Assembly (NCBI RefSeq): GCF_000026545.1
Contig: NC_011601.1
Strand: one strand, 5' to 3'
Length of the DNA: 64,000 nucleotides
Source of the DNA: Escherichia coli O127:H6 str. E2348/69
GTDB lineage: Bacteria; Pseudomonadota; Gammaproteobacteria; Enterobacterales; Enterobacteriaceae
Part shown: positions 17,421 to 30,319 of the stretch, piece by piece
Layout: every line of letters begins with the position of its first letter
Position numbering within the stretch: position 1 is the stretch's first letter
The notes under the pieces: model-generated
Database searches by the model: none
Told to the model about the DNA's origin: nothing
What the model saw: the letters and a program-made list of their open reading frames with translations, nothing else
Made by a program: the position numbers and the translations under genes

Positions 17421-19367
17421 ATGAATATTTTAGGTTTTTTCCAGCGACTCGGTAGGGCGTTACAGCTCCCTATCGCGGTGCTGCCGGTGGCGGCGCTGTT
17501 GCTGCGATTCGGTCAGCCAGATTTACTTAACGTTGCGTTTATTGCCCAGGCGGGCGGTGCGATTTTTGATAACCTCGCATTAATCTTCGCCATCGGCGTG
17601 GCATCCAGCTGGTCGAAAGACAGCGCAGGTGCGGCGGCACTGGCGGGTGCGGTAGGTTACTTTGTGTTAACCAAAGCGATGGTGACCATCAACCCAGAAA
17701 TTAACATGGGTGTACTGGCGGGTATCATTACCGGTCTGGTTGGTGGCGCAGCCTATAACCGTTGGTCCGATATTAAACTGCCGGACTTCCTGAGCTTCTT
17801 CGGCGGCAAACGCTTTGTGCCGATCGCCACCGGCTTCTTCTGTCTGGTGCTGGCGGCCATTTTTGGTTACGTCTGGCCACCGGTACAGCACGCTATCCAT
17901 GCAGGCGGCGAGTGGATCGTTTCTGCGGGCGCGCTGGGTTCCGGTATCTTTGGTTTCATCAACCGTCTGCTGATCCCAACCGGTCTGCATCAGGTGCTGA
18001 ACACCATCGCCTGGTTCCAGATTGGTGAATTCACCAACGCGGCGGGAACGGTTTTCCACGGTGATATCAACCGCTTCTATGCCGGTGACGGCACCGCGGG
18101 GATGTTCATGTCCGGCTTCTTCCCGATTATGATGTTCGGTCTGCCGGGTGCGGCGCTGGCGATGTACTTCGCAGCACCGAAAGAGCGTCGTCCGATGGTT
18201 GGCGGTATGCTGCTTTCTGTTGCTGTTACTGCGTTCCTGACCGGTGTGACTGAGCCGCTGGAATTCCTGTTCATGTTCCTTGCGCCGCTGCTGTACCTCC
18301 TGCACGCACTGCTGACCGGTATCAGCCTGTTTGTGGCAACGCTGCTGGGTATCCATGCCGGCTTCTCTTTCTCTGCGGGGGCTATCGACTACGCGTTGAT
18401 GTATAACCTGCCGGCCGCCAGCCAGAACGTCTGGATGCTGCTGGTGATGGGTGTTGTCTTCTTCGCTATCTACTTCGTGGTGTTCAGTTTGGTTATCCGC
18501 ATGTTCAACCTGAAAACGCCGGGTCGTGAAGATAAAGAAGACGAGATCGTTACTGAAGAGGCTAACAGCAATACTGAAGAAGGTCTCAATCAACTGGCAA
18601 CCAACTATATTGCTGCGGTTGGCGGTACTGACAACCTGAAAGCCATTGACGCCTGTATTACTCGTCTGCGCCTTACCGTGGTTGACTCAGCTCGCGTCAA
18701 CGATGCGATGTGTAAACGTCTGGGTGCTTCTGGGGTAGTGAAACTGAACAAACAGACTATTCAGGTGATTGTTGGCGCGAAAGCAGAATCCATCGGCGAT
18801 GCGATGAAGAAAGTCGTTGCCCGTGGTCCGGTAGCCGCTGCGTCAGCTGAAGCAACTCCGGCAACTGCCGCGCCTGTAGCAAAACCGCAGGCTGTACCAA
18901 ACGCGGTATCTATCGCGGAGCTGGTATCGCCGATTACCGGGGATGTTGTGGCACTGGATCAGGTTCCTGACGAGGCATTCGCCAGCAAAGCGGTGGGTGA
19001 CGGTGTGGCGGTGAAACCGACGGATAAAATCGTCGTATCACCAGCCGCAGGGACAATCGTGAAAATCTTCAACACCAACCACGCGTTCTGCCTGGAAACC
19101 GAAAAAGGCGCGGAGATCGTCGTCCATATGGGTATCGACACTGTAGCGCTGGAAGGTAAAGGCTTTAAACGTCTGGTGGAAGAGGGCGCGCAGGTAAGCG
19201 CAGGGCAACCGATTCTGGAAATGGATCTGGATTACCTGAACGCTAACGCCCGTTCGATGATTAGCCCGGTGGTTTGCAGCAATATCGACGATTTCAGTGG
19301 CTTGATCATTAAAGCTCAGGGCCATGTTGTGGCGGGTCAAACACCGCTGTATGAAATCAAAAAGTAA
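17421..19367 (+). CDS. nagE: PTS N-acetylglucosamine-specific EIICBA component
   Basis: 648-aa ORF MNILGFFQRLGRALQLPIAVLPVAALLLRFGQPDLL with EIIC, EIIB (CITRLR) and EIIA domains. Recognised as NagE. Confidence 0.95.
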   Translation: MNILGFFQRLGRALQLPIAVLPVAALLLRFGQPDLLNVAFIAQAGGAIFDNLALIFAIGVASSWSKDSAGAAALAGAVGYFVLTKAMVTINPEINMGVLAGIITGLVGGAAYNRWSDIKLPDFLSFFGGKRFVPIATGFFCLVLAAIFGYVWPPVQHAIHAGGEWIVSAGALGSGIFGFINRLLIPTGLHQVLNTIAWFQIGEFTNAAGTVFHGDINRFYAGDGTAGMFMSGFFPIMMFGLPGAALAMYFAAPKERRPMVGGMLLSVAVTAFLTGVTEPLEFLFMFLAPLLYLLHALLTGISLFVATLLGIHAGFSFSAGAIDYALMYNLPAASQNVWMLLVMGVVFFAIYFVVFSLVIRMFNLKTPGREDKEDEIVTEEANSNTEEGLNQLATNYIAAVGGTDNLKAIDACITRLRLTVVDSARVNDAMCKRLGASGVVKLNKQTIQVIVGAKAESIGDAMKKVVARGPVAAASAEATPATAAPVAKPQAVPNAVSIAELVSPITGDVVALDQVPDEAFASKAVGDGVAVKPTDKIVVSPAAGTIVKIFNTNHAFCLETEKGAEIVVHMGIDTVALEGKGFKRLVEEGAQVSAGQPILEMDLDYLNANARSMISPVVCSNIDDFSGLIIKAQGHVVAGQTPLYEIKK

Positions 19368-19455: not shown

Positions 19456-20736
19456 TTACATTGGGAAGATAAAAACAGCGCCTGCACAAAGCGCCAGAAT
19501 GCGGATGAGATACATTGGTACAGAGAACACCCAGAATTCGGGAAGTTTGTATTTCCCCATTCCGAGGATCATGGCTGGCATTCCGTCAATAGGCATATAG
19601 CCGCCGTTCCAGCCTGAAATCACCACCGCAATCGCTGCAGCGGTCGGGTTAAGCCCAAGGCTGGTACAGGCGGCAATGGCGATGGGGGCAAAAATATAAA
19701 CAGACCCCATATTCGAACCCGTGAAGGTGGCGCAGGTACTGGTAAGCAAAGCAAAGGCGACAATAAATACAAATGGTGAGACGCCAGAACCGAGCACACC
19801 TGCAACGGCATCGCCAACCATCGCCGTAAAGCCGGTGCCCGCCAGTGCATCAGCTACACCGATCACCCCCGCCATCATTAAAATGACCGGCGCTCCCATA
19901 TGATCGCGAACTTCTTTAAAGTCCAGTACATCGATCATCAGAACAAACGCACCCGCAAGACCCGGAATAACGAAGGCGATATTTCCCAGAATGTTCATTA
20001 GCATCATGCCGATAACGCTGACAGCGAATGCGGCAATAGTGCAATATTCTTTCCAGGCAGGAAGGGCGTTAAACGTTTCCTCGCGTGCCGCCAGCGCATC
20101 CTCGGAAGCATCCGCAATGGGATGATCCGGAAGAAAACGGTAGGCAATAAGACTCCATGCGAGGAACGCCGCTGACATGATGAGATTCACCAGCGCAAAG
20201 CGCCCCATCGAAATCTCCTGATGAAAACCCGCGGTTTCGAGTACGGTCGCCGTAACGCCAAAGAGAAGCGCGAGATTGATAGGAAGAAGCGGGTGGTTGG
20301 TGGCAAATCCCAGGGGCATCATTAATTTCGATGTTGGTAGCTTTTTACTGTACGGAATGGTGGATACCAGCGACAGAATCAGCACGTAATAACCGGTCGC
20401 GCCGGTGCCTGCAAGACTGGCACCCAGCATAACAATGACTAACAACAGCCCGTAGCTGCGGTAACTGCCTTTATTGACCAGGCTTATCATCGCAGATTTA
20501 ACGTTGCTGATAAGCCGGGTTTTTTGTAGCGCTGCCATGACCACCATAAACCCTGCAATCATCACCACGCTTGGATTGACGAATCCGGCAAAAGCCTGTT
20601 GAACGGTCGAAAGTCCCGAGACAACCAGCAATAAACACGCAAGCAGTGGCGGTGCGCCAAATGGCATTTTGTCCGACATGATCAGCACGATCATCAGGAC
20701 CAGTATTCCTAATGCCAGGATCATTTCCATTGTCAT
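19456..20736 (-). CDS. Ion-transporter (IT) superfamily anion permease (ArsB/NhaD/SLC13-like), last gene of the island's leftward operon
   Basis: The track ORF 19456..20982 is trimmed to the ATG at 20736 (MTMEMILALGILVLMIVLIMSDK), which is preceded by AAAGGAGAGA. The extension would overlap the upstream gene. The 426-aa protein is hydrophobic throughout, with a central hydrophilic loop (PDHPIADASEDALAAREETFNALPAWKE) separating two halves. That layout is typical of IT-superfamily carboxylate/anion carriers. Family assignment is by composition and pattern only. Confidence 0.7.
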   Translation of the reverse strand: MTMEMILALGILVLMIVLIMSDKMPFGAPPLLACLLLVVSGLSTVQQAFAGFVNPSVVMIAGFMVVMAALQKTRLISNVKSAMISLVNKGSYRSYGLLLVIVMLGASLAGTGATGYYVLILSLVSTIPYSKKLPTSKLMMPLGFATNHPLLPINLALLFGVTATVLETAGFHQEISMGRFALVNLIMSAAFLAWSLIAYRFLPDHPIADASEDALAAREETFNALPAWKEYCTIAAFAVSVIGMMLMNILGNIAFVIPGLAGAFVLMIDVLDFKEVRDHMGAPVILMMAGVIGVADALAGTGFTAMVGDAVAGVLGSGVSPFVFIVAFALLTSTCATFTGSNMGSVYIFAPIAIAACTSLGLNPTAAAIAVVISGWNGGYMPIDGMPAMILGMGKYKLPEFWVFSVPMYLIRILALCAGAVFIFPM

Positions 20737-20749
20737 TTTTTCTCTCCTT

Positions 20750-21220
20750 TTAGGCTTCCAGCATGTCGCGCGGTACCTTAAAGACCGCTTTGCGTACTGA
20801 CGTAGCCGCGCCAATCGCGCACAGCGCCTGGTGAGGTTCCTCAGGCATAAAGACGGCGAAATCACCGGGGTGTAGAGTGATGGCGACACTGTTTTCAGGG
20901 GATGGGGCGATAAACAGATCGGGCTTACGTTCTTCATCGTTTTCGCGAGCGATGGGCCGCGTTCCCGCATTAATGCCCTCACAACCAGTAATCACCACCT
21001 GGATATCGGCCCACAGATGGTGATACTCCGTATGGCGGAGTTCGGCGGGTTGCGTGTCTGAAGTTCCCAGCGTGCAGAACCACCGACATCCTTCAGGTTG
21101 CCAGCGACCGTCCTCTCTGGCGGATAACGCCGATAACGAACACTCCGGGCACAGCAGAATATTTCTCACCCAGGCGGGAAGCCCCGCCAGCGACAAATGG
21201 TTGAGATTACCGATAATCAT
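20750..21220 (-). CDS. YhcH/YjgK/YiaL (DUF386) family protein, NanQ-like putative ulosonic-acid anomerase
   Basis: 156 aa. The N-terminus MIIGNLNHLSLAGLPAWVRNIL and the C-terminus GDFAVFMPEEPHQALCAIG...KAVFKVPRDMLEA parallel E. coli YhcH (MMMGEVQSLPSAGLHPAL ... GMFAVFMPGEPHKPGCVVG...KVVVKVKADLMA, from memory). An ATGA overlap with the upstream BNR gene indicates coupling. Confidence 0.75.
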   Translation of the reverse strand: MIIGNLNHLSLAGLPAWVRNILLCPECSLSALSAREDGRWQPEGCRWFCTLGTSDTQPAELRHTEYHHLWADIQVVITGCEGINAGTRPIARENDEERKPDLFIAPSPENSVAITLHPGDFAVFMPEEPHQALCAIGAATSVRKAVFKVPRDMLEA

Positions 21221-22386
21221 GATGCCTGCCCCTTAACCCACTCGGGGGAGATGCGCACGTACTTGATGGCCTGACGCCACCAGGTGTAAGCGATATGTAG
21301 CGTACCGTCCGGGCTTTGTTTGATGCTGGGGTAGGAGAACTCACGATTTAGCTTTTCCAGGGAATTGTTGGTCATGCAGTTGCCGTCGCCTTCATCGAGA
21401 TTGCGCCGCCACGGCCAGCTTTTCCCACCATCGGCAGAAATCGCTACCGTCATCGGCGCGCGTGGGGCCCCCCAGAAAGCGGAGCGTCCGACGGCTGTCG
21501 GTTCTTTGCGGCTGTCGTCGCCATCGTCGATTTCGTCATAAAGCGACGCGCGACGTTCTACTGCGCCTGCCGCACTCATCGCGTTGTACACCAGCGCCAG
21601 TTCGCCGCTGGCAAGCGTCGTTACCTGAATAGACGAATTGTTGTTGGGCAATTCGGTAGCTTGCGGCACCGACCAACTCTCGCCGTTGTCCACTGAATGG
21701 CTGATATAGATGTTGTCTGCCCAACGGCTGCGAAAGAGAGCAACCAACGTACCGTCGTGCAGCATTGTGATATTCATATGAACGCAGCCGAGACTTTGCG
21801 GCACCTCGACATCGCGCCATGAGTGACCACCGTCAGCGGAAATTTTCACTGCGCTGATATCATCATTGCCGACCCATTTTTCGCCGGGTTGGGTACGGCA
21901 ATAAAAGACGGGAAGCAGCCAGTTACCGTTATCAAGCACCGTGATCGGCTGGCGAATGAACGTGCCGGGTTTATCGAGCAGGGTGGCAATCTCGCCCCAG
22001 GTTTGCCCAAGGTCGTCAGACTTACGGTAGCGGACGATGGCCGTGTCCTGATTACCGGATATTTGTGCGGTCCATAGCAGCCACAGCACGTTATCCGGCG
22101 CGAGAAACAGCACCGGGTTTTGCTCTGAACGCGTGTCATCGTGGGAAAGTTTGACCGCATCGCTCCACTGCGTTCTGCCAGCGGGCAATCGTGATCCCCA
22201 GACAGAAATATCGGCAATACCTTCCTGTGTTCCCGCAAACCAGACGCACATTAATGCGCCATCCGGCATTGGCAGAATATTCGCCGCGTGGTTTTGCGGG
22301 CAGGACGAGGGCAGCATGGCGGTAAGCACATGCGAATCGTTTTCGGATGGACGGATGACGCCGTCACGAATAAGGGCTACAGACAT
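21217..22386 (-). CDS. BNR/Asp-box repeat beta-propeller protein, sialidase (exo-alpha-sialidase)-like, no signal peptide
   Basis: 389 aa with four S-x-D-x-G-x-(S/T)-W Asp boxes: SDDLGQTW (aa 123-130), SADGGHSW (183-190), SVDNGESW (231-238) and SADGGKSW (317-324). The N-terminus MSVALIRDGVIRPSEND has no hydrophobic signal sequence. GGAG Shine-Dalgarno before the ATG. Confidence 0.75.
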   Translation of the reverse strand: MSVALIRDGVIRPSENDSHVLTAMLPSSCPQNHAANILPMPDGALMCVWFAGTQEGIADISVWGSRLPAGRTQWSDAVKLSHDDTRSEQNPVLFLAPDNVLWLLWTAQISGNQDTAIVRYRKSDDLGQTWGEIATLLDKPGTFIRQPITVLDNGNWLLPVFYCRTQPGEKWVGNDDISAVKISADGGHSWRDVEVPQSLGCVHMNITMLHDGTLVALFRSRWADNIYISHSVDNGESWSVPQATELPNNNSSIQVTTLASGELALVYNAMSAAGAVERRASLYDEIDDGDDSRKEPTAVGRSAFWGAPRAPMTVAISADGGKSWPWRRNLDEGDGNCMTNNSLEKLNREFSYPSIKQSPDGTLHIAYTWWRQAIKYVRISPEWVKGQAS

Positions 22387-22421
22387 AGTTAGACTCCATC
22401 TTAAAGTTGGTAATAGATTTA

Positions 22422-23180
22422 TTAATGCGAGTGCGATTCATGCGTTTCGATCAATGTCGAAACTTTTTTATTTCTTCTTTCACGGATAATATTGAGTGTC
22501 TCAACACTTAATGAGAAAAATATCGCGAAGTAGAGATACTCTTTGGCAATATGAATGTTGAGACTATCGGCAACCAGCAATACACCGACAAACAATAAAA
22601 AGGTTAACGCCAGTATTTTTATTGACGGCGTGGCGTTAACGAAATCACCAATTGTTTTCGCCGCAAACATCATGACACCGACGGCAATCATTACGGCGGC
22701 AATCATGATAAATATATGCTGAGAAAGGCCGACGGCGGTGATCACCGAATCCAGGCTAAACACGATATCGAGCAGCATTATCTGTACAATGGCACCGCAC
22801 AACGACAGTTGCCGCGATCCGCTGCCATGTTCGTCTTCCTGCGCGGGCGACAGCTCTTCGCGTATCTCCTGTATCGCTTTATAAATCAGGAACAGCCCGC
22901 CCCCGAGCAGAATCAACGTGCGGAACGAAATCTCCAGCGTCAGCACGGTAAAAAGCGGCTGGGTAATATGTGAAAGCCACGCAATGGATATCAGCAATAA
23001 TATCCGCATAATCATCGCGCAGCTTAAACCCAGTTTACGCGCCATATTTTGTTGTGATAACGGAAGTTTTGCCACCACCAGTGAAAGAAAAATAATATTA
23101 TCCACCCCAAGAATAATTTCCAGAAAGGTGAGGGTAATTAAAGTGAGCCAGATATCTGGCTGCATAAACCACAAAAACAT
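22422..23180 (-). CDS. TerC-family integral membrane protein (resembles the TerC domain of YoaE/YegH, without a CBS/CorC tail)
   Basis: 252 aa. MFLWFMQPDIWLTLITLTFLEIILGVDNIIFLSLVVAKLP closely parallels the YoaE N-terminus (...[27 protein letters not shown], from memory). The second DxxxS motif region is LLDIVFSLDSVITAVG. Confidence 0.75.
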   Translation of the reverse strand: MFLWFMQPDIWLTLITLTFLEIILGVDNIIFLSLVVAKLPLSQQNMARKLGLSCAMIMRILLLISIAWLSHITQPLFTVLTLEISFRTLILLGGGLFLIYKAIQEIREELSPAQEDEHGSGSRQLSLCGAIVQIMLLDIVFSLDSVITAVGLSQHIFIMIAAVMIAVGVMMFAAKTIGDFVNATPSIKILALTFLLFVGVLLVADSLNIHIAKEYLYFAIFFSLSVETLNIIRERRNKKVSTLIETHESHSH

Positions 23181-23239
23181 GGGGTAATCCTTTATTCTCT
23201 TTATCTAAACTTTATAGCGGGCTGGATAATAGAGTTAAT

Positions 23240-24127
23240 TTAATTAATGTTATAATGACGAATAATTTGTTGAATCTCGCTGATCTGTTCAGGCGTGAAA
23301 TTAACCGCGTAGCGGCTATCACCAACATCATGCCCCATAAGCTGCAACGCTTTTTTCACCGCAGCCGGGGAGAATGCTACTTTATAAAGATCGGTACGCA
23401 GGCCCGTTACACTCTCCTGTGCTTCATAAGACCCTTCAATATCACCGGCATGGAAGCGAGACCAGATGGCATTGATTTCTCGCGGCGCGATGTTGGCGAG
23501 CCCAGAGATACAGGCTGAACATCCCTCGACAAACCCTTTATGGATCAGCGAATCCGGGCCGTTGAGCACATTAAAGCCGTCAATGTCGCGCACCGCATCG
23601 AGAAAACCCTTCAGGCTTTCGTCGCTTCCGGCGCTGTCTTTAATCCCAATGATATTGGGGTGCGACGCCAGAGCACGCGCGGTTTCTGGCTGGATCGTAT
23701 TGCCAGTGCGGGCCGGGATGTTATAGAGAAACATCGGAATGCTCAGTGCGTCGGCAATTGCGCTGTAATGCGCAATCAACTCTTCCTGTTTCAGCGGTAC
23801 GAAGTAAGGGGCAATGACCGACACGGCATCTACGCCAAGTTTTTCAATCTGCTGACCCAGACGAATCGTTTCGCGCGTAGAGATCTCGCCAATGTGTGCC
23901 ACGACCGGCGCACGACCAGCCACTTCATCCACGCAGGTTTGCGTAACGCTGAGCTTCTCCTGTTCATTCAACACAAAAAATTCGCCGTTGGTGCCGCCGC
24001 AAAAAATCGCGTTACCCGCTTCCAGTTGACGATTCACCTGCACTTTTAACGCCGGGATATTCAGACTGCCGGTCGCGGTAAACGGGGTGACGATAGCGGT
24101 TAATACACCTTCAATGGTTTTCGGCAT
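23240..24127 (-). CDS. DHDPS/N-acetylneuraminate-lyase family class I (Schiff-base) pyruvate aldolase
   Basis: 295 aa with the family signatures GGTNGEF (GxxGE), LYNIP (catalytic Tyr) and IIGIKDSAGS (Schiff-base Lys). It starts 3 nt after the upstream ADH stop. Confidence 0.8.
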   Translation of the reverse strand: MPKTIEGVLTAIVTPFTATGSLNIPALKVQVNRQLEAGNAIFCGGTNGEFFVLNEQEKLSVTQTCVDEVAGRAPVVAHIGEISTRETIRLGQQIEKLGVDAVSVIAPYFVPLKQEELIAHYSAIADALSIPMFLYNIPARTGNTIQPETARALASHPNIIGIKDSAGSDESLKGFLDAVRDIDGFNVLNGPDSLIHKGFVEGCSACISGLANIAPREINAIWSRFHAGDIEGSYEAQESVTGLRTDLYKVAFSPAAVKKALQLMGHDVGDSRYAVNFTPEQISEIQQIIRHYNIN

Positions 24128-24130
24128 GAT

Positions 24131-25288
24131 TTATTCCTTAAATTGATGTTGCGGAAACAGTGTTTGGTAAATGGCCTGTACGTCCTGTAGATCAAGCTGG
24201 CACGGCACATTGTTCATAAGGCGCTTCACGTTCAGTGCCGCCTCGCTAAGAGAGGCAATATCCTCTGGCGGTACGCCGAGATCTGCGAGATTGTTGGGTA
24301 GCTTGAGTTGATTGACTAATGCCTGTAACCAGGTCACCAGGGCATGAGATTTTTCTTCCGCGCTCAGGGCGGTTTCCGCATCGGGAATGCAATCCCAGAC
24401 CCGGGCAAATTTCTCGACCGCCCAGGGGCGAACAAACGCCATGCACGGCGCCAGCAAGATGGCATTCGCGACGCCATGCGGCAGATGATATTTGCCACCT
24501 AACGGGTAGGAGAGCGCATGAACGAGATGCGTGCCCGCATGGGTTATCGCTACGCCGCCATAGTAAGACGCCCACAGCATTTCCAGTTTTGCGCGCAGAT
24601 CCTGAGGATCGTTCACGGCGGGTTGAATGTGCCGGAAAAGTTTACTTAACCCAGTCAGCGCCGCGTTATCGCTGACCGGATTTGCCACGGTCGCGGTAAA
24701 ACACTCCAGTAAGTGGCAAAGAGCATCAATGCCCGTGGACGCCGCAATATGCGCAGGCATGCTGGTGGTCAGTTCCGGGAAAAGCGCCACATAGTCTGGT
24801 AACAGCATCTGGGAAATAATACCCACCTTCGTGCTTTGCTCAGGGATTGCCAGAATCGCATTCGGCGTGGCTTCTGAGCCGGTTCCGGCGGTTGTAGGAA
24901 TCAACCATGATTGCACCCGCTGAGTTGGTTTTTCACCCGCAAGCAGCGCATCCAGCCCCGGAGATTGTGGATGGCAAAGCACCGATAGCAGCTTTGCCAC
25001 ATCCAACACGCTGCCACCGCCGATCCCGACCACCACATCAAAAGAGGCATCGCCAAGGACATCCATTAGCTGGCGCACATCATGATGCGTGGGCTCTGCG
25101 GGCACATTATCGATAACGTTAACCTGCGGGCAGTGCTGTTCCAGTAAGGCGCGAATCTGCTGCACACCGTCGAGCTGCGCAATATTACGGTCAGTGACCA
25201 GCAGCATTTTTCTGATGTCGGGTAAGAGCGACGTCAGGGAAGGGATAGCGCCTGCGCCGCTCAGTATCGTGCTATTGATAATTACCAC
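24131..25288 (-). CDS. Iron-containing (group III) alcohol dehydrogenase family oxidoreductase, first gene of the leftward operon
   Basis: 385 aa with a GTG start preceded by AGAGAGGT. GIGGGSVLDVAKL is the NAD(P)-binding motif. His-rich metal motifs are IDALCHLLE and HAGTHLVHALSYPLGGKYHLPHG. Confidence 0.8.
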   Translation of the reverse strand: MVIINSTILSGAGAIPSLTSLLPDIRKMLLVTDRNIAQLDGVQQIRALLEQHCPQVNVIDNVPAEPTHHDVRQLMDVLGDASFDVVVGIGGGSVLDVAKLLSVLCHPQSPGLDALLAGEKPTQRVQSWLIPTTAGTGSEATPNAILAIPEQSTKVGIISQMLLPDYVALFPELTTSMPAHIAASTGIDALCHLLECFTATVANPVSDNAALTGLSKLFRHIQPAVNDPQDLRAKLEMLWASYYGGVAITHAGTHLVHALSYPLGGKYHLPHGVANAILLAPCMAFVRPWAVEKFARVWDCIPDAETALSAEEKSHALVTWLQALVNQLKLPNNLADLGVPPEDIASLSEAALNVKRLMNNVPCQLDLQDVQAIYQTLFPQHQFKE

Positions 25289-25306
25289 AAATAACCTCTC
25301 TTCTGG

Positions 25307-25322
25307 TGATTGAATTCAATCA
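25307..25322. promoter_or_regulatory. Perfect 16-bp palindrome, candidate operator (O1) for the island DeoR regulator
   Basis: TGATTGAATTCAATCA lies 19 nt upstream of the ADH GTG start, within the likely 5' UTR of the leftward operon. Confidence 0.5.
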
Positions 25323-25412
25323 TTCAAAATGCCGTAGCCTACGTAACATGGTCTAATTTTATAATTTATTCGAGTGATTAATAACTTGAGCTTGCTCACA
25401 TTTAATCAATTG

Positions 25413-25428
25413 TGATTGAATATAATCA
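25413..25428. promoter_or_regulatory. Imperfect palindrome with the same half-sites, candidate operator (O2) overlapping a TATAAT hexamer for the rightward operon
   Basis: TGATTGAATATAATCA has the same outer half-sites TGATT/AATCA as O1. The TATAAT at 25421..25426 lies inside it. Its centre is 106 bp from the O1 centre. A third GTGATTAAT copy sits at 25374..25382. Confidence 0.45.
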
Positions 25429-25454
25429 TTATTATCATAAAACAACCTGGAGTG

Positions 25455-26693
25455 ATGATGGAAAAGGGAATCACTAAGCCGAGCATTCTCGTCGTTGCCG
25501 ATGATTTCACGGGAGCCAACGACGCGGGGGTAAGCCTGGCGCAGGTGGGGCATACAGTTGATGTGGCCTTTGAAATGCCTTATCACGGTGATGCCAGCGT
25601 ATGGGTGATTAACAGCGACAGCCGGGCGATGGATCCTAAGCTGGCGGCGATGAAAATAACCTCGCTGATGAGTCATCTCCCTCTGGCGAATAACCCGCCG
25701 CTCGTGATTAAAAAGATAGATTCCACGCTTCGAGGCAATATCGGCGCAGAAATTGAAGCCCTGATGAAGGCATGCGGTATAACGGGCGCAGTGATTGCCC
25801 CCGCATTTCCTCAGGCGGGAAGGACCACAGTGGCCGGTGAGTGTTGGGTAAACGGTGTGCGGATAACGGAAACCGAGTTTGCCAGCGATCCGAAAACCCC
25901 GGTATTGAGCGCCCGAATTGCGGACATCATCCGGTTGCAGACGGCCATTCCATGCCAGCCCGTTACGGTTTCTCAGCTCAGCCATTTGTCTTATGAGCAA
26001 CCGTGGATTGGCGTGATAGATGCGCAGACGGACAGCGACCTGGATCGCATCGCTGCCGCTGTGATGCAGGCTAAACAACCGCTACTGCTGGTCGGCTCCG
26101 CTGGTATTTGTGATGCCGTTGCCCGGCGCTCCGCGATTATGCCGCCACCCACCGTGCTGGCCATTATTGGTTCAATGAGCGAAATCGCTCAACGGCAGAT
26201 CGCCACACTGCATTCACACCCACGTATCACACAGATATACGTCGATGTTGAACACATTCTGGCAGGCAATGCCAGTGACTATGACGCGCGTATTGTGCAG
26301 GCCTTGCAGAAAGGCGACCACTGCATTGTCCACACCTGTAACGATTCTGTAGCAAGGCATCAGATCGACACCCTTTGCCAGCGTTGGCAGATGAGTCGCG
26401 CTGCACTTGGGGAAAAAATTTGTCGGTTTCTTGGCGAACTTACCCGGCAAGTTCTGCTTCGCACAATGCCCGATGCGCTTTATCTCTCTGGTGGCGATGT
26501 CGCAATGGCAACAGCCAGTGCGTTAGGCGCGACCGGGTTTCGTATTACGGGGAAGGTGGCGCAATGCGTTCCATATGGTCACTTTCTGGGCGGCGTCTGG
26601 TCCCGTTCGGTGATGACGAAAGCCGGTGGGTTTGGCGATGAGACCACGTTGCATCAGGTTCTGAATTTTATCGAGGAGAAGCGTAGTGAATAA
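25455..26693 (+). CDS. DUF1537-family four-carbon acid-sugar kinase (DtnK/OtnK-like)
   Basis: The track ORF starts at a TTG (25416) within the operator region. ATG 25455 or 25458 follows GGAG at 25448..25451. The N-terminus ILVVADDFTGANDAG is the hallmark ADDFTGA motif of this kinase family. The product is about 412 aa. Confidence 0.75.
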   Translation: MMEKGITKPSILVVADDFTGANDAGVSLAQVGHTVDVAFEMPYHGDASVWVINSDSRAMDPKLAAMKITSLMSHLPLANNPPLVIKKIDSTLRGNIGAEIEALMKACGITGAVIAPAFPQAGRTTVAGECWVNGVRITETEFASDPKTPVLSARIADIIRLQTAIPCQPVTVSQLSHLSYEQPWIGVIDAQTDSDLDRIAAAVMQAKQPLLLVGSAGICDAVARRSAIMPPPTVLAIIGSMSEIAQRQIATLHSHPRITQIYVDVEHILAGNASDYDARIVQALQKGDHCIVHTCNDSVARHQIDTLCQRWQMSRAALGEKICRFLGELTRQVLLRTMPDALYLSGGDVAMATASALGATGFRITGKVAQCVPYGHFLGGVWSRSVMTKAGGFGDETTLHQVLNFIEEKRSE

Positions 26694-27672
26694 CATTATT
26701 GCGGTAACGATGGGCGATCCGGCGGGTATTGGCCCGGAGATCATTATTAAATCCCTGAGCGAAGCCGGGCTTGCTGGTACCCCGGTGGTGGTGGTGGGCT
26801 GTGTGCGCACGCTGCGACGTATTATGGCGATGAATATCACGCCGCAGGCAGAGTTACGCGTCATTCAAAAGGTGTGCGACGCCCACTTTGCTCCCGGCGT
26901 GATTAACGTGATGGATGAGCCTCTGGCTAACCCCGATGCGCTGACACCTGGTGTGGTACAGGCTGCGGCAGGCGATTTAGCGTATCGCTGTATCAAACGT
27001 GCAACGGCCCTGGCCTTATCAGGCGAGGTGAAAGCCATAGCCACTGCGCCGTTGAATAAAGAAGCGCTGCATCTTGGCGGGCATAACTATCCGGGGCATA
27101 CGGAATTGCTGGCCCATCTTACCGGCAGCAAAGAGTACGCGATGGTGCTCTATACCGATAAGCTCAAGGTTATCCATATTTCGACTCACATCTCACTGCG
27201 TAAATTCCTGGATACTTTGAATGGTGAAAGGGTCAAAACGGTTATTCGAGTTGCGAACCACTTCCTGAAACGTGTCGGCATTGAGCGTCCGCGTATTGCC
27301 GTGGCGGGTGTAAATCCACATGCAGGGGAACACGGTTTATTCGGCACTGAGGAAATCGAGATTATCGCACCTGCGATTGAAGCAATGCAGGCCGAAGATA
27401 TTGATGTTACTGGCCCGTGCCCGCCAGATACCGTGTTCATGCAGTGCCATGAAGGGCTATTCGATATGGTGGTGGCTATGTACCATGATCAGGGGCATAT
27501 CCCTTTAAAACTGCTTGGATTTTATGATGGGGTGAATATCACCGCCGGGTTGCCATTTATTCGCACTTCTGCCGACCACGGCACCGCGTTTGATATTGCC
27601 TGGACAGGAAAAGCCAAGTCTGAGAGCATGGCAGTTTCCATCCAGTTAGCAATGCAGATTTCGCGAGAATAA
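26686..27672 (+). CDS. PdxA-family NAD-dependent dehydrogenase (PdxA2-type, 4-phospho-D-threonate/4-hydroxythreonine-4-phosphate dehydrogenase family)
   Basis: 328 aa. The GTG start overlaps the kinase stop by 8 nt and is preceded by GAGGAG. Visible motifs are [15 protein letters not shown], the HTELLA and NPHAGE metal-ligand regions, and YHDQGHIP. Confidence 0.8.
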
Positions 27673-27673
27673 A

Positions 27674-28435
27674 ATGAAGGGATATAACCGGTTAGAGCAG
27701 ATCATGGATTACCTGAAAAGCCATAATCTGGTCACCGTTGATGAGCTGGTGGCGGTAACCAATGCGTCGCCGGCTACGATTCGTCGAGACCTGATAAAAC
27801 TCGATGAGCAGGGTGTTATCAGCCGTACACACGGCGGTGTGACCCTCAACCGGTTTATTCCTACCCAACCGACTACCCATGAGAAAATGCAGCGCAGCCT
27901 GGCGGAAAAACATGCTATCGCCAGCGCAGCGGCGTCAATGGTCAAAGCGGGGGATTCCGTCGTCCTTGATGCCGGTACGACAATGATTGAACTTGCGCGG
28001 CAGATTACACATTTACCGCTTCGCGTGATCACCAGCGACCTGCATATCGCGCTTTTTTTGGCTGAATTCAAGCAAATTGAAGTGACGATTATCGGCGGAC
28101 GTATCGACGACTCCAGCCAGTCCTGCATTGGCGAACATGGTCGTAAATTGCTGCAAAATACCTGGCCGGACGTGGCATTTTTAAGCTGTAACAGCTGGGA
28201 TCTTGAAAAGGGTATTACAGCACCCACGGAAGAGAAAGCCGCACTAAAACGCGATCTTATCGCGCATGCTTCGCGCAAAATTCTCCTGGCTGACAGCTCA
28301 AAATACGGTTCATGGTCGCTGTTTAATATCGCGCATCTTAATGAACTGACAGAGATTATTACGGATAGTCAGCTTGATGGGCAGACGCGTAGAACGCTTG
28401 CGTCCTTGTCGACGCGTTTAATCATAGCCGACTAA
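27674..28435 (+). CDS. DeoR-family transcriptional regulator
   Basis: 253 aa with an N-terminal HTH ([50 protein letters not shown]) and a C-terminal DeoR sugar-phosphate sensor domain. It starts 1 nt after the PdxA-family stop. Confidence 0.85.
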
Positions 28436-28654: not shown

Positions 28655-30319
28655 ATGAGTGAGGCAGAAGCCCGCCCGACTAACTTTATCCGTCAGATCA
28701 TCGATGAAGATCTGGCCAGTGGTAAGCACACCACAGTACACACCCGTTTCCCGCCGGAGCCGAATGGCTATCTGCATATTGGCCATGCGAAATCTATCTG
28801 CCTGAACTTCGGGATCGCCCAGGACTATAAAGGCCAGTGCAACCTGCGTTTCGACGACACTAACCCGGTAAAAGAAGATATCGAGTATGTCGATTCGATC
28901 AAAAACGACGTAGAGTGGTTAGGTTTTCACTGGTCTGGTAACGTCCGTTACTCCTCCGATTATTTTGATCAGCTCCACGCCTATGCGATCGAACTGATCA
29001 ATAAAGGCCTGGCGTACGTTGATGAACTGACGCCGGAACAGATCCGCGAATACCGCGGCACCTTGACGCAGCCGGGTAAAAACAGCCCGTACCGCGATCG
29101 CAGCGTTGAAGAGAACCTGGCGCTGTTCGAGAAAATGCGTACCGGCGGTTTTGAAGAAGGTAAAGCCTGCCTGCGTGCGAAGATCGACATGGCTTCGCCG
29201 TTTATCGTGATGCGCGATCCGGTGCTGTACCGCATTAAGTTTGCTGAACACCACCAGACTGGCAACAAGTGGTGCATCTACCCGATGTACGACTTCACCC
29301 ACTGCATCAGCGATGCGCTGGAAGGTATTACGCACTCTCTGTGTACGCTTGAGTTCCAGGACAACCGCCGTCTGTACGACTGGGTACTGGACAATATCAC
29401 CATTCCTGTTCACCCGCGCCAGTACGAATTCTCGCGCCTGAATCTGGAATACACTGTGATGTCCAAGCGTAAGCTGAACCTGCTGGTGACCGATAAGCAC
29501 GTTGAAGGCTGGGATGACCCACGTATGCCGACCATTTCTGGTCTGCGTCGTCGTGGTTACACTGCGGCTTCTATTCGTGAGTTCTGCAAACGCATTGGTG
29601 TGACCAAGCAGGACAACACCATTGAGATGGCGTCACTGGAATCCTGCATCCGTGAAGATCTCAACGAAAATGCGCCGCGCGCAATGGCGGTTATCGATCC
29701 GGTGAAACTGGTTATCGAAAACTACCAGGGCGAAGGCGAAATGGTTACCATGCCGAACCATCCGAATAAACCGGAAATGGGCAGCCGCCAGGTGCCATTT
29801 AGCGGTGAGATTTGGATCGATCGCGCCGATTTCCGCGAAGAAGCTAACAAGCAGTACAAACGTCTGGTGCTGGGTAAAGAAGTGCGTCTGCGTAATGCTT
29901 ACGTCATTAAGGCAGAACGCGTCGAGAAAGATGCCGAAGGCAATATCACCACCATCTTCTGTACTTATGACGCCGACACCTTAAGCAAAGATCCGGCAGA
30001 TGGTCGTAAAGTCAAAGGTGTTATTCACTGGGTGAGCGCGGCACATGCGCTGCCGGTTGAAATCCGTTTGTATGACCGTCTGTTCAGCGTGCCGAACCCT
30101 GGTGCTGCGGATGATTTCCTGTCGGTGATTAACCCGGAATCGCTGGTGATCAAACAGGGCTTTGCTGAACCGTCGCTGAAAGATGCGGTTGCGGGTAAAG
30201 CATTCCAGTTTGAGCGTGAAGGTTACTTCTGCCTCGACAGCCGCCATTCTACGGCGGAAAAACCGGTATTTAACCGCACCGTTGGGCTGCGTGATACCTG
30301 GGCGAAAGTAGGCGAGTAA
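28655..30319 (+). CDS. glnS: Glutaminyl-tRNA synthetase
   Basis: 554-aa [50 protein letters not shown] with the HIGH and VMSKR class I signatures. Recognised as GlnS. Confidence 0.96.

Follow-up and report, generated by a model that had tools for sequence, protein, structure and literature searches.

In this study, we analysed a 64,000-nucleotide stretch of the genome of Escherichia coli O127:H6 strain E2348/69 (contig NC_011601.1; the whole stretch is referred to as the window), an enteropathogenic E. coli (EPEC), and focused on a ~9-kb island of nine genes that is inserted between nagE (17421-19367) and glnS (28655-30319). Our data suggest that the island constitutes one DeoR-controlled regulon that breaks down a seven-carbon 3-deoxy-2-ulosaric acid supplied as a small glycoside, a reading to which we assign a probability of roughly 0.55. 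It is carried by what we observed directly, namely the gene content and the protein families, the equivalog-level matches of the kinase DtnK and the dehydrogenase PdxA2, the co-occurrence of the same enzyme set in other genomes, and an operator-like site shared by the two operons.

According to the proposed pathway, an SLC13 permease would import the acidic compound (step 1) and a cytoplasmic BNR enzyme of the sialidase fold would hydrolyse the imported glycoside to the free keto-acid sugar (step 2), whose interconversion between anomers and open chain a YhcH protein would accelerate (step 3). A DapA-family aldolase would act on the open chain and release pyruvate together with a C4 aldehyde-acid, 2,3-dihydroxy-4-oxobutanoate (step 4), to be reduced to D-threonate by an iron-containing alcohol dehydrogenase (Fe-ADH; step 5). 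DtnK would then form 4-phospho-D-threonate (step 6), and its oxidative decarboxylation by PdxA2 would yield dihydroxyacetone phosphate and CO2 (step 7). We infer every substrate in this scheme, how steps 1-5 follow one another, which sugar is involved (DHA, or 3-deoxy-D-lyxo-heptulosarate, of the pectin rhamnogalacturonan II, RG-II, is considered below), and the effector of the DeoR protein.

Gene content and occurrence of the island

The island comprises the following features (positions in the window):

19456-20736, minus strand: SLC13/CitMHS (ion-transporter superfamily) anion permease; Pfam CitMHS 87 bits, Na_sulph_symp 49 bits; RefSeq 'SLC13 family permease'
20750-21220, minus strand: YhcH/YjgK/YiaL (DUF386) protein; Pfam DUF386 93 bits
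21217-22386, minus strand: BNR_2 'sialidase family' protein, cytoplasmic, with a sialidase fold
22422-23180, minus strand: TerC-family integral membrane protein; Pfam TerC 157 bits
23240-24127, minus strand: DapA/DHDPS-family class I (Schiff-base) pyruvate aldolase; Pfam DHDPS 207 bits
24131-25288, minus strand: Fe-ADH; Pfam Fe-ADH and ADH_Fe_C
25307-25322, no strand: first palindrome copy, candidate DeoR operator, just upstream of the Fe-ADH gene
25413-25428, no strand: second palindrome copy, candidate operator, in front of dtnK
25458-26693, plus strand: DUF1537 four-carbon acid-sugar kinase of the DtnK type; NCBIfam NF047819; RefSeq gene name dtnK
26686-27672, plus strand: PdxA2, D-threonate 4-phosphate dehydrogenase (decarboxylating); NCBIfam NF002891
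27674-28435, plus strand: DeoR/GlpR-family repressor; Pfam HTH_DeoR and DeoRC

An earlier note on this DNA, made from the letters and translations alone, had listed the same nine genes in this order and on these strands, and the open reading frame (ORF) list, Pfam, NCBIfam and the RefSeq annotation concordantly returned all of them. The motifs it had quoted were likewise present in the translations (GGTNGEF, LYNIP and GIKDS in the aldolase, ADDFTGAND in the kinase), and neither nanK nor nanE lies within the island, as it had stated. The longest ORF of the permease (19456-20982; 508 aa) begins at a GTG inside yhcH and is over-extended by 82 residues; RefSeq and the orthologs place the true start at 20736, giving a protein of 426 aa.

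Within the species, the island was detected in 1047 of 5426 complete E. coli genomes (~19%), counting places that cover at least 80% of the query. A 2026 comparative genomics study lists it as 'GR 6, nagE..glnS', common to extraintestinal pathogenic (ExPEC) strains of group B2 and the adherent-invasive (AIEC) strain LF82, and functionally uncharacterised (PMC12928451).

A D-threonate-type kinase and dehydrogenase

The kinase scored 533.5 bits on the NCBIfam D-threonate kinase equivalog NF047819 (cut-off 450), compared with 106.7 bits on the model of the 3-oxo-tetronate kinase OtnK and 29.7 bits on that of OiaK. Likewise, the PdxA homolog reached 680.3 bits on the PdxA2 model NF002891 (cut-off 583), and 369.9 bits on the best PdxA model. 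With both proteins above their equivalog cut-offs, the earlier assignment of the pair to the D-threonate type is upheld, and the kinase does not group with the 3-oxo-tetronate kinases; such a grouping was what that note had named as fatal to its proposal. As judged from these profiles, the last two enzymes of the pathway are a D-threonate kinase and a D-threonate-4-phosphate dehydrogenase at equivalog level. The island PdxA2 is 75% identical to Salmonella PdxA2 (P58718) and the kinase 40% identical to Salmonella DtnK (PMC12928451).

Conservation of the enzyme set across genomes

A scan for BNR protein relatives, in which a single genome represented each species, returned 80 loci, all of them from Enterobacterales; the nine island proteins were mapped onto the loci and all ORFs were clustered, with counts taken over 79 loci. 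The genera represented are mostly plant-associated: Pantoea, Erwinia, Pectobacterium, Kosakonia, Phytobacter, Leclercia, Enterobacter and the Klebsiella oxytoca group. Besides the BNR gene (79 loci), the survey recovered a short-chain dehydrogenase/reductase (SDR; 67 loci), YhcH and a sodium/solute symporter (SSF; 66 each), DtnK, Fe-ADH, the DapA-like aldolase and PdxA2 (62 each), and DeoR, which kept its position in 60 loci; TerC plus the SLC13 permease were present in 11. Judged by Pfam domains, deoR-pdxA2-dtnK usually diverges from FeADH-dapA-like-SSF-BNR-yhcH-SDR; ~60 of the 79 Enterobacterales species loci keep the divergent layout of deoR-pdxA2-dtnK and FeADH-dapA-like-(transporter)-BNR-yhcH.

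Distant BNR homologs (39-61% identity) neighbour the same enzyme set in other lineages. On plasmid pAt of Agrobacterium fabrum C58 and on pSymB of Sinorhizobium meliloti, the set occurs together with an Opp-type ABC transporter and a GntR regulator; Rhizobium has the set as well. The megaplasmid of Ralstonia solanacearum carries a single operon, dapA-ADH-(DUF1537::PdxA fusion)-SSF-BNR-DeoR-SDR, whose fusion protein measures 766 aa (locus L094, 5115-7415). Two metagenome contigs feature tripartite ATP-independent periplasmic (TRAP) transporters, one of them in a single operon (kinase-FeADH-PdxA-DHDPS-SDR-BNR-DctPQM), and on a further metagenome contig an ABC transporter adjoins BNR-FeADH-DHDPS, with a GntR regulator, kinase and PdxA alongside. 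Altogether, five transporter types were found among the clusters.

The set may even extend beyond bacteria. A contig that looks fungal, judged by its fungal-type transcription factors (L090), encodes BNR, DHDPS and PdxA proteins, an aldo-keto reductase, a flavocytochrome b2-like protein and a major facilitator superfamily transporter; no DUF1537 kinase was seen on it. Fungi normally make pyridoxal phosphate (PLP) by a route independent of 1-deoxy-D-xylulose 5-phosphate, and the PdxA homolog on this contig therefore hints at horizontal transfer of the pathway. Fungal BNR homologs are 48-49% identical, and one occurs in the cereal root pathogen Gaeumannomyces (Gaeumannomyces avenae; L086).

The most telling variant is that of Amycolatopsis solani, in which an ABC transporter-BNR pair and DeoR-PdxA-kinase precede the genes of an aldo-keto reductase and of an aldolase from the HpcH/HpaI family. 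The latter scored best on the models of GarL (2-dehydro-3-deoxyglucarate aldolase; 157 bits) and HpaI (4-hydroxy-2-oxoheptanedioate aldolase; 141 bits). Both GarL and HpaI cleave 2-keto-3-deoxy dicarboxylic acids, and the HpaI substrate is the 5,6-dideoxy analogue of DHA. As aldolase and reductase have here been swapped for members of unrelated families, it appears to be the reactions, not the families, that are conserved. We regard this displacement as strong comparative evidence, at the level of predicted functions, for the order pyruvate aldolase, aldehyde reductase, kinase and PdxA2.

Taken together, the combination recurs in many plant-associated taxa, which answers the question behind a neighbourhood check suggested in the earlier note. 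The DUF1537-PdxA2 neighbourhood and the genomic region had each been noticed before, and the route proposed here appears to be undescribed. In addition, the genome-wide association hits reported in one ISME Journal paper include pSymB genes for a 'four-carbon acid sugar kinase' and for DapA-family proteins, their identity with the cluster not being established.

A palindromic site shared by both operons

The region between dtnK and the Fe-ADH gene contains a perfect 16-bp palindrome, TGATTGAATTCAATCA, at 25307-25322 and a second copy, TGATTGAATATAATCA, at 25413-25428, which overlaps a promoter-like site (25410-25438) before dtnK. The pattern TGATTGAAWWYAATCA matches three times in the 64-kb window as compared with 0.01 matches expected. 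Promoter-like and terminator-like sites were no more numerous than in shuffled sequence, and of these only the position of the one promoter-like site over the operator is of interest. The pattern matched 57 fetched loci exactly, counting L001, which is the copy in the window itself, and in these loci it sits in the dtnK/Fe-ADH intergenic region wherever the two genes are present. Four Pantoea loci are without the dtnK half, and there it is located just upstream of a detached SSF-BNR-YhcH-SDR module, which ties both halves into one regulon. The DeoR protein presumably regulates both operons via the palindromes, and its effector, relieving repression, is probably a phosphorylated intermediate of the pathway.

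Synteny in ~60 Enterobacterales species, the single-operon and fused forms elsewhere and the common palindrome thus bear out the earlier view of the two divergent operons as one unit. It is conceivable that they are instead independent neighbours, one being a D-threonate operon (dtnK-pdxA2-deoR, perhaps with the SLC13 permease) and the other a sialic-acid-like or Kdo-like operon (Kdo, 3-deoxy-D-manno-octulosonate) that yields a C5 or C6 aldehyde. After all, Salmonella DtnK and PdxA2 suffice on their own for D-threonate catabolism (Zhang et al. 2016, as reported in PMC10971088), and some Pantoea loci hold the SSF-BNR-SDR module without the other genes. Yet the genes are interleaved in single operons (kinase-FeADH-PdxA-DHDPS-SDR-BNR-TRAP; dapA-ADH-kinase::PdxA-SSF-BNR in Ralstonia), the operator is shared even by the detached Pantoea modules, and the set co-occurs across phyla with no nanK, nanE or pentose genes. 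We therefore deem two separate modules very unlikely.

The aldolase and the aldehyde reductase

For DtnK and PdxA2 to be supplied, the substrate needs to be a 4-hydroxy-2-oxo acid, and what it leaves besides pyruvate must be a C4 aldehyde-acid from which reduction gives D-threonate. The aldolase reached no NCBIfam equivalog cut-off: it came close for dapA (TIGR00674; 189.9 versus 206.15 bits) and stayed far below those for NanA (NF003164, 144.9 versus 281 bits; TIGR00683, 110.6 versus 382 bits). Its best solved relatives are dihydrodipicolinate synthase (DHDPS) enzymes, with YagE and NanA weaker. Orthology to a characterised aldolase for 2-keto-3-deoxy-gluconate, -xylonate or -galactonate, which the earlier note had feared as counter-evidence, was thus not observed.

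Our alignment of 62 orthologs also contained DapA and NanA of E. coli, both identical to PDB chains. The Schiff-base lysine (GIKD), the catalytic tyrosine (LYNIP) and the GGTNGEF motif are invariant in the orthologs, with lysine and tyrosine aligning to K161 and Y133 of DapA and to K165 and Y137 of NanA. The protein thereby shows the lysine, the tyrosine and the carboxylate-binding GxxGE motif that define class I enzymes of the DapA/NAL superfamily. The DapA triad Thr44-Tyr107-Tyr133 is incomplete, with Phe at the position of Tyr107. Retained and invariant in all 62 orthologs is the arginine of YNIPxRTG, equivalent to DHDPS Arg138 and also present in the alignment with Staphylococcus aureus DHDPS; E. 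coli NanA has Leu in its place. In DHDPS, Arg138 binds the carboxylate of aspartate semialdehyde, i.e. of a C4 aldehyde-acid, and its retention would suit the aldolase to precisely the shape of aldehyde that the scheme requires. The equivalent arginine also occurs in the Rhizobiaceae-type and two metagenomic clusters, with Lys in Ralstonia. Though not universal, its conservation is supportive of a C4 aldehyde-acid as the predicted product.

The kinship to DHDPS, with a score almost at the dapA cut-off, also invites the idea of an amino compound: the aldolase would release an aldehyde resembling 3-hydroxy-aspartate semialdehyde, to be reduced to 4-hydroxy-L-threonine, phosphorylated and oxidised by PdxA2, for PLP supply or the detoxification of 4-hydroxythreonine. 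In favour of this, 4-hydroxythreonine is a substrate of the DUF1537 kinase STM0162 (Thiaville 2016, as reported in PMC10971088) and PdxA2 can perform the PdxA reaction (Thiaville 2016, as described in a citing paper). But the product would not be a central metabolite, the cluster encodes no nitrogen handling, and the sialidase-fold enzyme and the acid transporters point to a sugar acid, so that we find this explanation the hardest of all to credit.

The Fe-ADH reached no NCBIfam equivalog either; the models of lactaldehyde reductase and 4-hydroxybutyrate dehydrogenase scored ~215 bits. Its gene adjoins the aldolase gene in every cluster that carries both, and we propose that the enzyme uses NAD(P)H to reduce the C4 aldehyde-acid to D-threonate.

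A separate observation concerns several Pantoea loci (e.g. L049, 6256-8316), where a tartrate dehydrogenase gene (TIGR02089, 574 bits) and a divergent LysR gene lie directly upstream of SSF-BNR-SDR, with neither aldolase nor kinase in the locus. This neighbour may be coincidental or hint at an oxidative fate of the C4 compound. We set aside oxidation of the aldehyde-acid to tartrate, as the two genes form a typical LysR-ttuC pair and the loci lack the aldolase.

The sialidase-fold BNR protein

Within its first 30 residues (MSVALIRDGVIRPSENDSHVLTAMLPSSCP), the BNR protein has five charged residues and no hydrophobic core. The protein is therefore predicted to lack a signal peptide, as had been claimed. 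Its AlphaFold model (predicted local distance difference test score, pLDDT, 81; predicted template modelling score, pTM, 0.85) is a six-bladed sialidase propeller, which accords with the statement in the earlier note that release of DHA from RG-II in Bacteroides uses a sialidase-like propeller family. The beta-propeller with its Asp-box repeats (S-x-D-x-G-x-x-W) corresponds to the fold of GH33.

We mapped active-site residues by aligning a profile of 32 diverse homologs with PDB sequences, that is, by profile alignment and not on superposed coordinates. The profile aligned best to the GH181 sialidase Amuc_1547, its top match among solved structures (E ~3e-12; the related chain 9eob, 6e-14), and to GH33 enzymes. 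Read against the published catalytic residues, R219 and R309 correspond to the second and third arginine of the triad and Y352 to the nucleophilic tyrosine, with H203 at the position of the catalytic glutamate and H33 at that of the RIP-motif arginine, so that the arginine triad of GH33 is incomplete. H33 is conserved in at least 90% of the family, and E55, R221, W238 and N248 are invariant. R371 is nearly invariant and lies two residues away from where GH181 has its substitute for the first arginine; it might compensate for the missing RIP arginine. The label 'sialidase-like' hence holds for the propeller and, by alignment, for two triad arginines and the tyrosine, but not for the RIP arginine and the catalytic glutamate; with the latter two replaced, assignment as a glycosidase rests on the fold and on partial residue conservation.

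By these features, the protein looks like a carboxylate-sugar-binding, tyrosine-dependent enzyme and not like a canonical GH33 member. We propose that it hydrolyses a small glycoside and thereby frees a 3-deoxy-2-ulosaric acid; it may, for instance, be a beta-L-arabinofuranosidase that removes the arabinofuranose (Araf) cap from Araf-(1->5)-DHA, which would fall within this proposal. Genomic context (no nanK or nanE; a C4 back end) argues against sialic acid as its substrate. Sialidase-like enzymes acting on other 3-deoxy-2-ulosonic acids are represented by the Kdo hydrolase KdhAB and by BT1013 and BT1020. Since the hydrolase is predicted to be cytoplasmic, the imported compound would be a small DHA glycoside and not free DHA. 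Heat alone is reported to release side chain D (Araf-DHA) from an RG-II oligosaccharide that bears it, obtained with the Bacteroides thetaiotaomicron ΔBT1020 mutant (bioRxiv 2026.03.13.711244), which makes small DHA fragments plausible in food and soil.

The histidines at the positions of the GH33 catalytic glutamate and RIP arginine leave room for a different role, in which the BNR protein is no glycosidase and acts on a free acid, for instance through the opening of a lactone or anhydro form or through hydration of a 2,3-unsaturated derivative, and the cell imports the monosaccharide acid itself. Sialidases do hydrate 2-deoxy-2,3-didehydro-N-acetylneuraminic acid (Neu5Ac2en), SSF, SLC13 and TRAP carriers usually move small molecules, and the frequent pairing of SDR with BNR recalls redox-assisted conversions of the NanOx type. 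We nevertheless consider this improbable, given that two triad arginines and the nucleophilic tyrosine are retained, that sialidase-like ketosidases acting on Kdo or DHA are known (KdhAB; BT1013, BT1020), and that the Opp-type ABC systems of other taxa fit an oligomeric substrate.

Accessory genes

The permease scored 56.7 bits on the NCBIfam DASS model, which is under the cut-off. DASS (SLC13) and TRAP transporters carry organic anions, and we propose that the SLC13 permease imports the acidic substrate. Together with TerC, it is confined to the cluster form of Escherichia, Klebsiella, Kluyvera and Pseudocitrobacter (11 of the 79 loci), where, relative to the usual form, TerC sits at the position of the SSF transporter and the permease at that of the SDR. 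As a side observation, the permease of E2348/69 is 98% identical to that of Pseudocitrobacter vendiensis and only 74-75% to those of Escherichia sp. MOD1-EC7003 and Enterobacteriaceae bacterium G50 (L002-L004). DtnK displays the opposite pattern (78% versus 90-94%), suggesting that the island is a mosaic, with recombination within it after acquisition.

The yhcH gene directly follows the BNR gene in 66 of the 79 Enterobacterales loci, and YhcH was absent from the clusters examined outside this order. The island protein scored 91.5 bits on the NanQ model NF040884 (cut-off 160) and 97 bits on the broader YhcH/YjgK/YiaL model (cut-off 45.5), so that of the earlier designation as YhcH/NanQ-like the family membership stands and NanQ orthology falls away. 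We propose that it acts on the keto-acid sugar once this is released, either as an anomerase or by helping its ring to open.

TerC is 73-98% identical across the 11 loci of the E. coli type and is separated from its flanking genes by 59 and 35 bp. An Rfam scan of the island, including the region in front of TerC, yielded neither a riboswitch nor any other match. An unrelated metagenome contig carries another TerC gene (L082, 2645-3688), at a distance of ~6 kb from its cluster.

Finally, the SDR tracks the BNR gene in SSF- and TRAP-type clusters and is missing from those of the ABC and SLC13 types, E. coli included. Examples are found at L013 11633-12310, L081 11856-12569, L094 11040-11699, L089 9216-9977 and L092 7109-7855; the proteins measure ~220-235 aa in SSF-type and ~250 aa in TRAP-type clusters. 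Among the SDRs scanned, the one from Enterobacter reached no NCBIfam equivalog cut-off. The SDR looks like an accessory enzyme tied to the form in which the substrate is imported.

Identity of the sugar

In DHA (D-lyxo), the hydroxyl groups at C4 and C5 point left and that at C6 right in the Fischer projection. Cleavage, reduction and renumbering from C7 (a 180-degree turn) give a product with the C2 hydroxyl left and the C3 hydroxyl right, which is D-threonate. This independent derivation confirms the stereochemistry put forward in the earlier note; the D-xylo isomer of DHA leads to the same product. Kdo, ketodeoxynonulosonic acid (KDN) and 3-deoxy-heptulosonate were rejected as substrates, since the resulting C5, C6 or non-acid C4 aldehydes would leave either Fe-ADH or DtnK/PdxA2 without a substrate.

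DHA of pectic RG-II is a plausible substrate in view of the plant-associated hosts and the neighbouring genes. Matches on plasmids numbered 128 in Rhizobium, 78 in Sinorhizobium, 27 in Pantoea, 21 in Ralstonia and 17 in Agrobacterium. Some loci have further genes beside the module, namely GH28 genes (rhamnogalacturonidase or galacturonidase-like) in Pantoea and Erwinia and KdgT genes in Erwinia, Kalamiella and Mixta. The transporter families in use (DASS, TRAP, SSF and ABC) also comprise carriers of anions. The pectic origin of the sugar is, on this basis, circumstantial.

The same architecture could serve another substrate that yields the C4 acid, be it a 3-deoxy-heptulosaric acid of other origin (algal, or from bacterial lipopolysaccharide or capsule), the D-xylo isomer, or the glycoside of an unidentified plant or microbial acid. 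The evidence on architecture is silent on the source of the sugar, the aldolase erases the stereochemistry at C4, and the solute-binding proteins found in Rhizobiaceae and Amycolatopsis, of family 5 (Opp-type), suggest that the substrate exceeds a monosaccharide in size. Against this stand the hosts and the GH28 and KdgT neighbours, which point to pectin, and the fact that DHA is, to our knowledge, the only widely distributed natural 3-deoxy-heptulosaric acid. We regard such a substrate as unlikely, albeit worth keeping in mind.

As for the regulon for a seven-carbon 3-deoxy-2-ulosaric acid glycoside as a whole, several points weigh against it. The kinase is only 40% identical to the characterised Salmonella enzyme, and the kinases of distant clusters score below the DtnK cut-off, yet nearer to DtnK than to OtnK. 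The DHDPS-like arginine is absent from two divergent DapA-family partners (26% identical). The BNR protein lacks two hallmarks of GH33, and as a cytoplasmic glycosidase it would need an imported DHA glycoside, none of which is known to occur free in the gut or in soil. YhcH falls beneath the NanQ cut-off, TerC has no role in the scheme. Nor does the scheme make use of the SDR, which is missing from E. coli and accompanies the BNR gene in Ralstonia, in the TRAP-type clusters and in 67 of the 79 loci from Enterobacterales. A different C7 diacid, or another compound yielding the C4 acid, would fit the same data, and the literature searched offers no biochemical or genetic data on any gene of the cluster. 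None of the counter-evidence named in the earlier note that could be looked for computationally was encountered. Thus, of the earlier interpretation, the pathway architecture is well supported by comparative genomics, but its statement that every enzyme has a role is not, with TerC roleless and the SDR of most other species outside the scheme.

Comparison with known systems

The front end of the island resembles sialic acid (nan) catabolism: an enzyme with the sialidase fold, a member of the YhcH family and a class I DapA-family pyruvate lyase are combined with a carrier of their own. SSF is the family of the sialic acid carrier SiaT and also of the carrier in most species with the cluster. 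It differs in that nanK and nanE are absent, the aldolase is nearer to DHDPS than to NanA, YhcH is not at NanQ level, and the BNR protein is cytoplasmic and devoid of the RIP arginine and catalytic glutamate. Moreover, the aldehyde would be reduced, phosphorylated and decarboxylated instead of being handled as N-acetylmannosamine.

With the D-threonate pathway of Salmonella enterica, the island shares the last two steps (DtnK/PdxA2) and the adjacent DeoR regulator, whereas its larger regulon would generate D-threonate intracellularly, starting from a sugar acid of greater size. The chemical logic matches that of D-glucarate/galactarate degradation by GarL-GarR-GarK, in which a 2-keto-3-deoxy-aldarate one carbon shorter is split into pyruvate and an aldehyde-acid, followed by reduction and phosphorylation (tartronate semialdehyde to glycerate), and the aldolase of the Amycolatopsis cluster is itself GarL/HpaI-like. 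The families differ, namely DapA instead of HpcH, Fe-ADH instead of a beta-hydroxyacid dehydrogenase, and DUF1537 instead of the glycerate kinase family. Besides, the product would be C4 and not C3, requiring a final oxidative decarboxylation.

Among the closest systems is also RG-II degradation in B. thetaiotaomicron, with the GH143 DHA hydrolase BT1020 and the C-terminal Kdo hydrolase of BT1013. In KdhAB/KdoH1-H2 of Francisella and Helicobacter, a sialidase-like protein cleaves a non-sialic 3-deoxy-2-ulosonic ketoside, working with a membrane protein encoded alongside; this likeness is one of description, and the system remodels the bacterium's own lipopolysaccharide and is not catabolic. 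Lastly, GH181 Amuc_1547 of Akkermansia, a three-domain mucin sialidase (catalytic, linker and carbohydrate-binding-module-like domains), shares with the island protein the six-bladed propeller, a non-canonical active site and two retained triad arginines. Amuc_1547 has kept the glutamate and lacks the tyrosine nucleophile, whereas the island BNR protein keeps the tyrosine and has His at the glutamate position.

Implications

A literature search retrieved no description of DHA catabolism or of the function of the island cluster, in agreement with the earlier remark that no described DHA route was known in enterobacteria. Neither the reviews consulted nor the 2026 preprint assign DHA a catabolic fate, and they call pathways for the related sugar Kdo in other gut microbes unconfirmed. 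In its most specific form, our proposal is that the island represents this missing route, in which a cytoplasmic, hitherto unassigned COG4692/BNR_2 family of sialidase-fold enzymes would free DHA, a signature sugar of RG-II, from small RG-II fragments for conversion to pyruvate and D-threonate, and which would be common to plant pathogens and symbionts and have been acquired by B2 E. coli; we advance this narrower version tentatively, at somewhat less than even odds.

If true, it would fill a gap in pectin metabolism, assign a function to a widespread sialidase-fold family, and provide a physiological source of D-threonate and a purpose for DtnK/PdxA2. The route would be common to Ralstonia, Pectobacterium, Erwinia, Pantoea, Agrobacterium and rhizobia, perhaps also to fungi such as Gaeumannomyces, and would amount to a conserved regulon in important plant pathogens and symbionts. 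It would further explain an island that separates pathogenic B2 E. coli (EPEC, ExPEC and AIEC LF82) from K-12-like strains and suggest a diet-dependent cross-feeding niche, in which B2 E. coli may feed on pectin fragments released by Bacteroides or by cooking.

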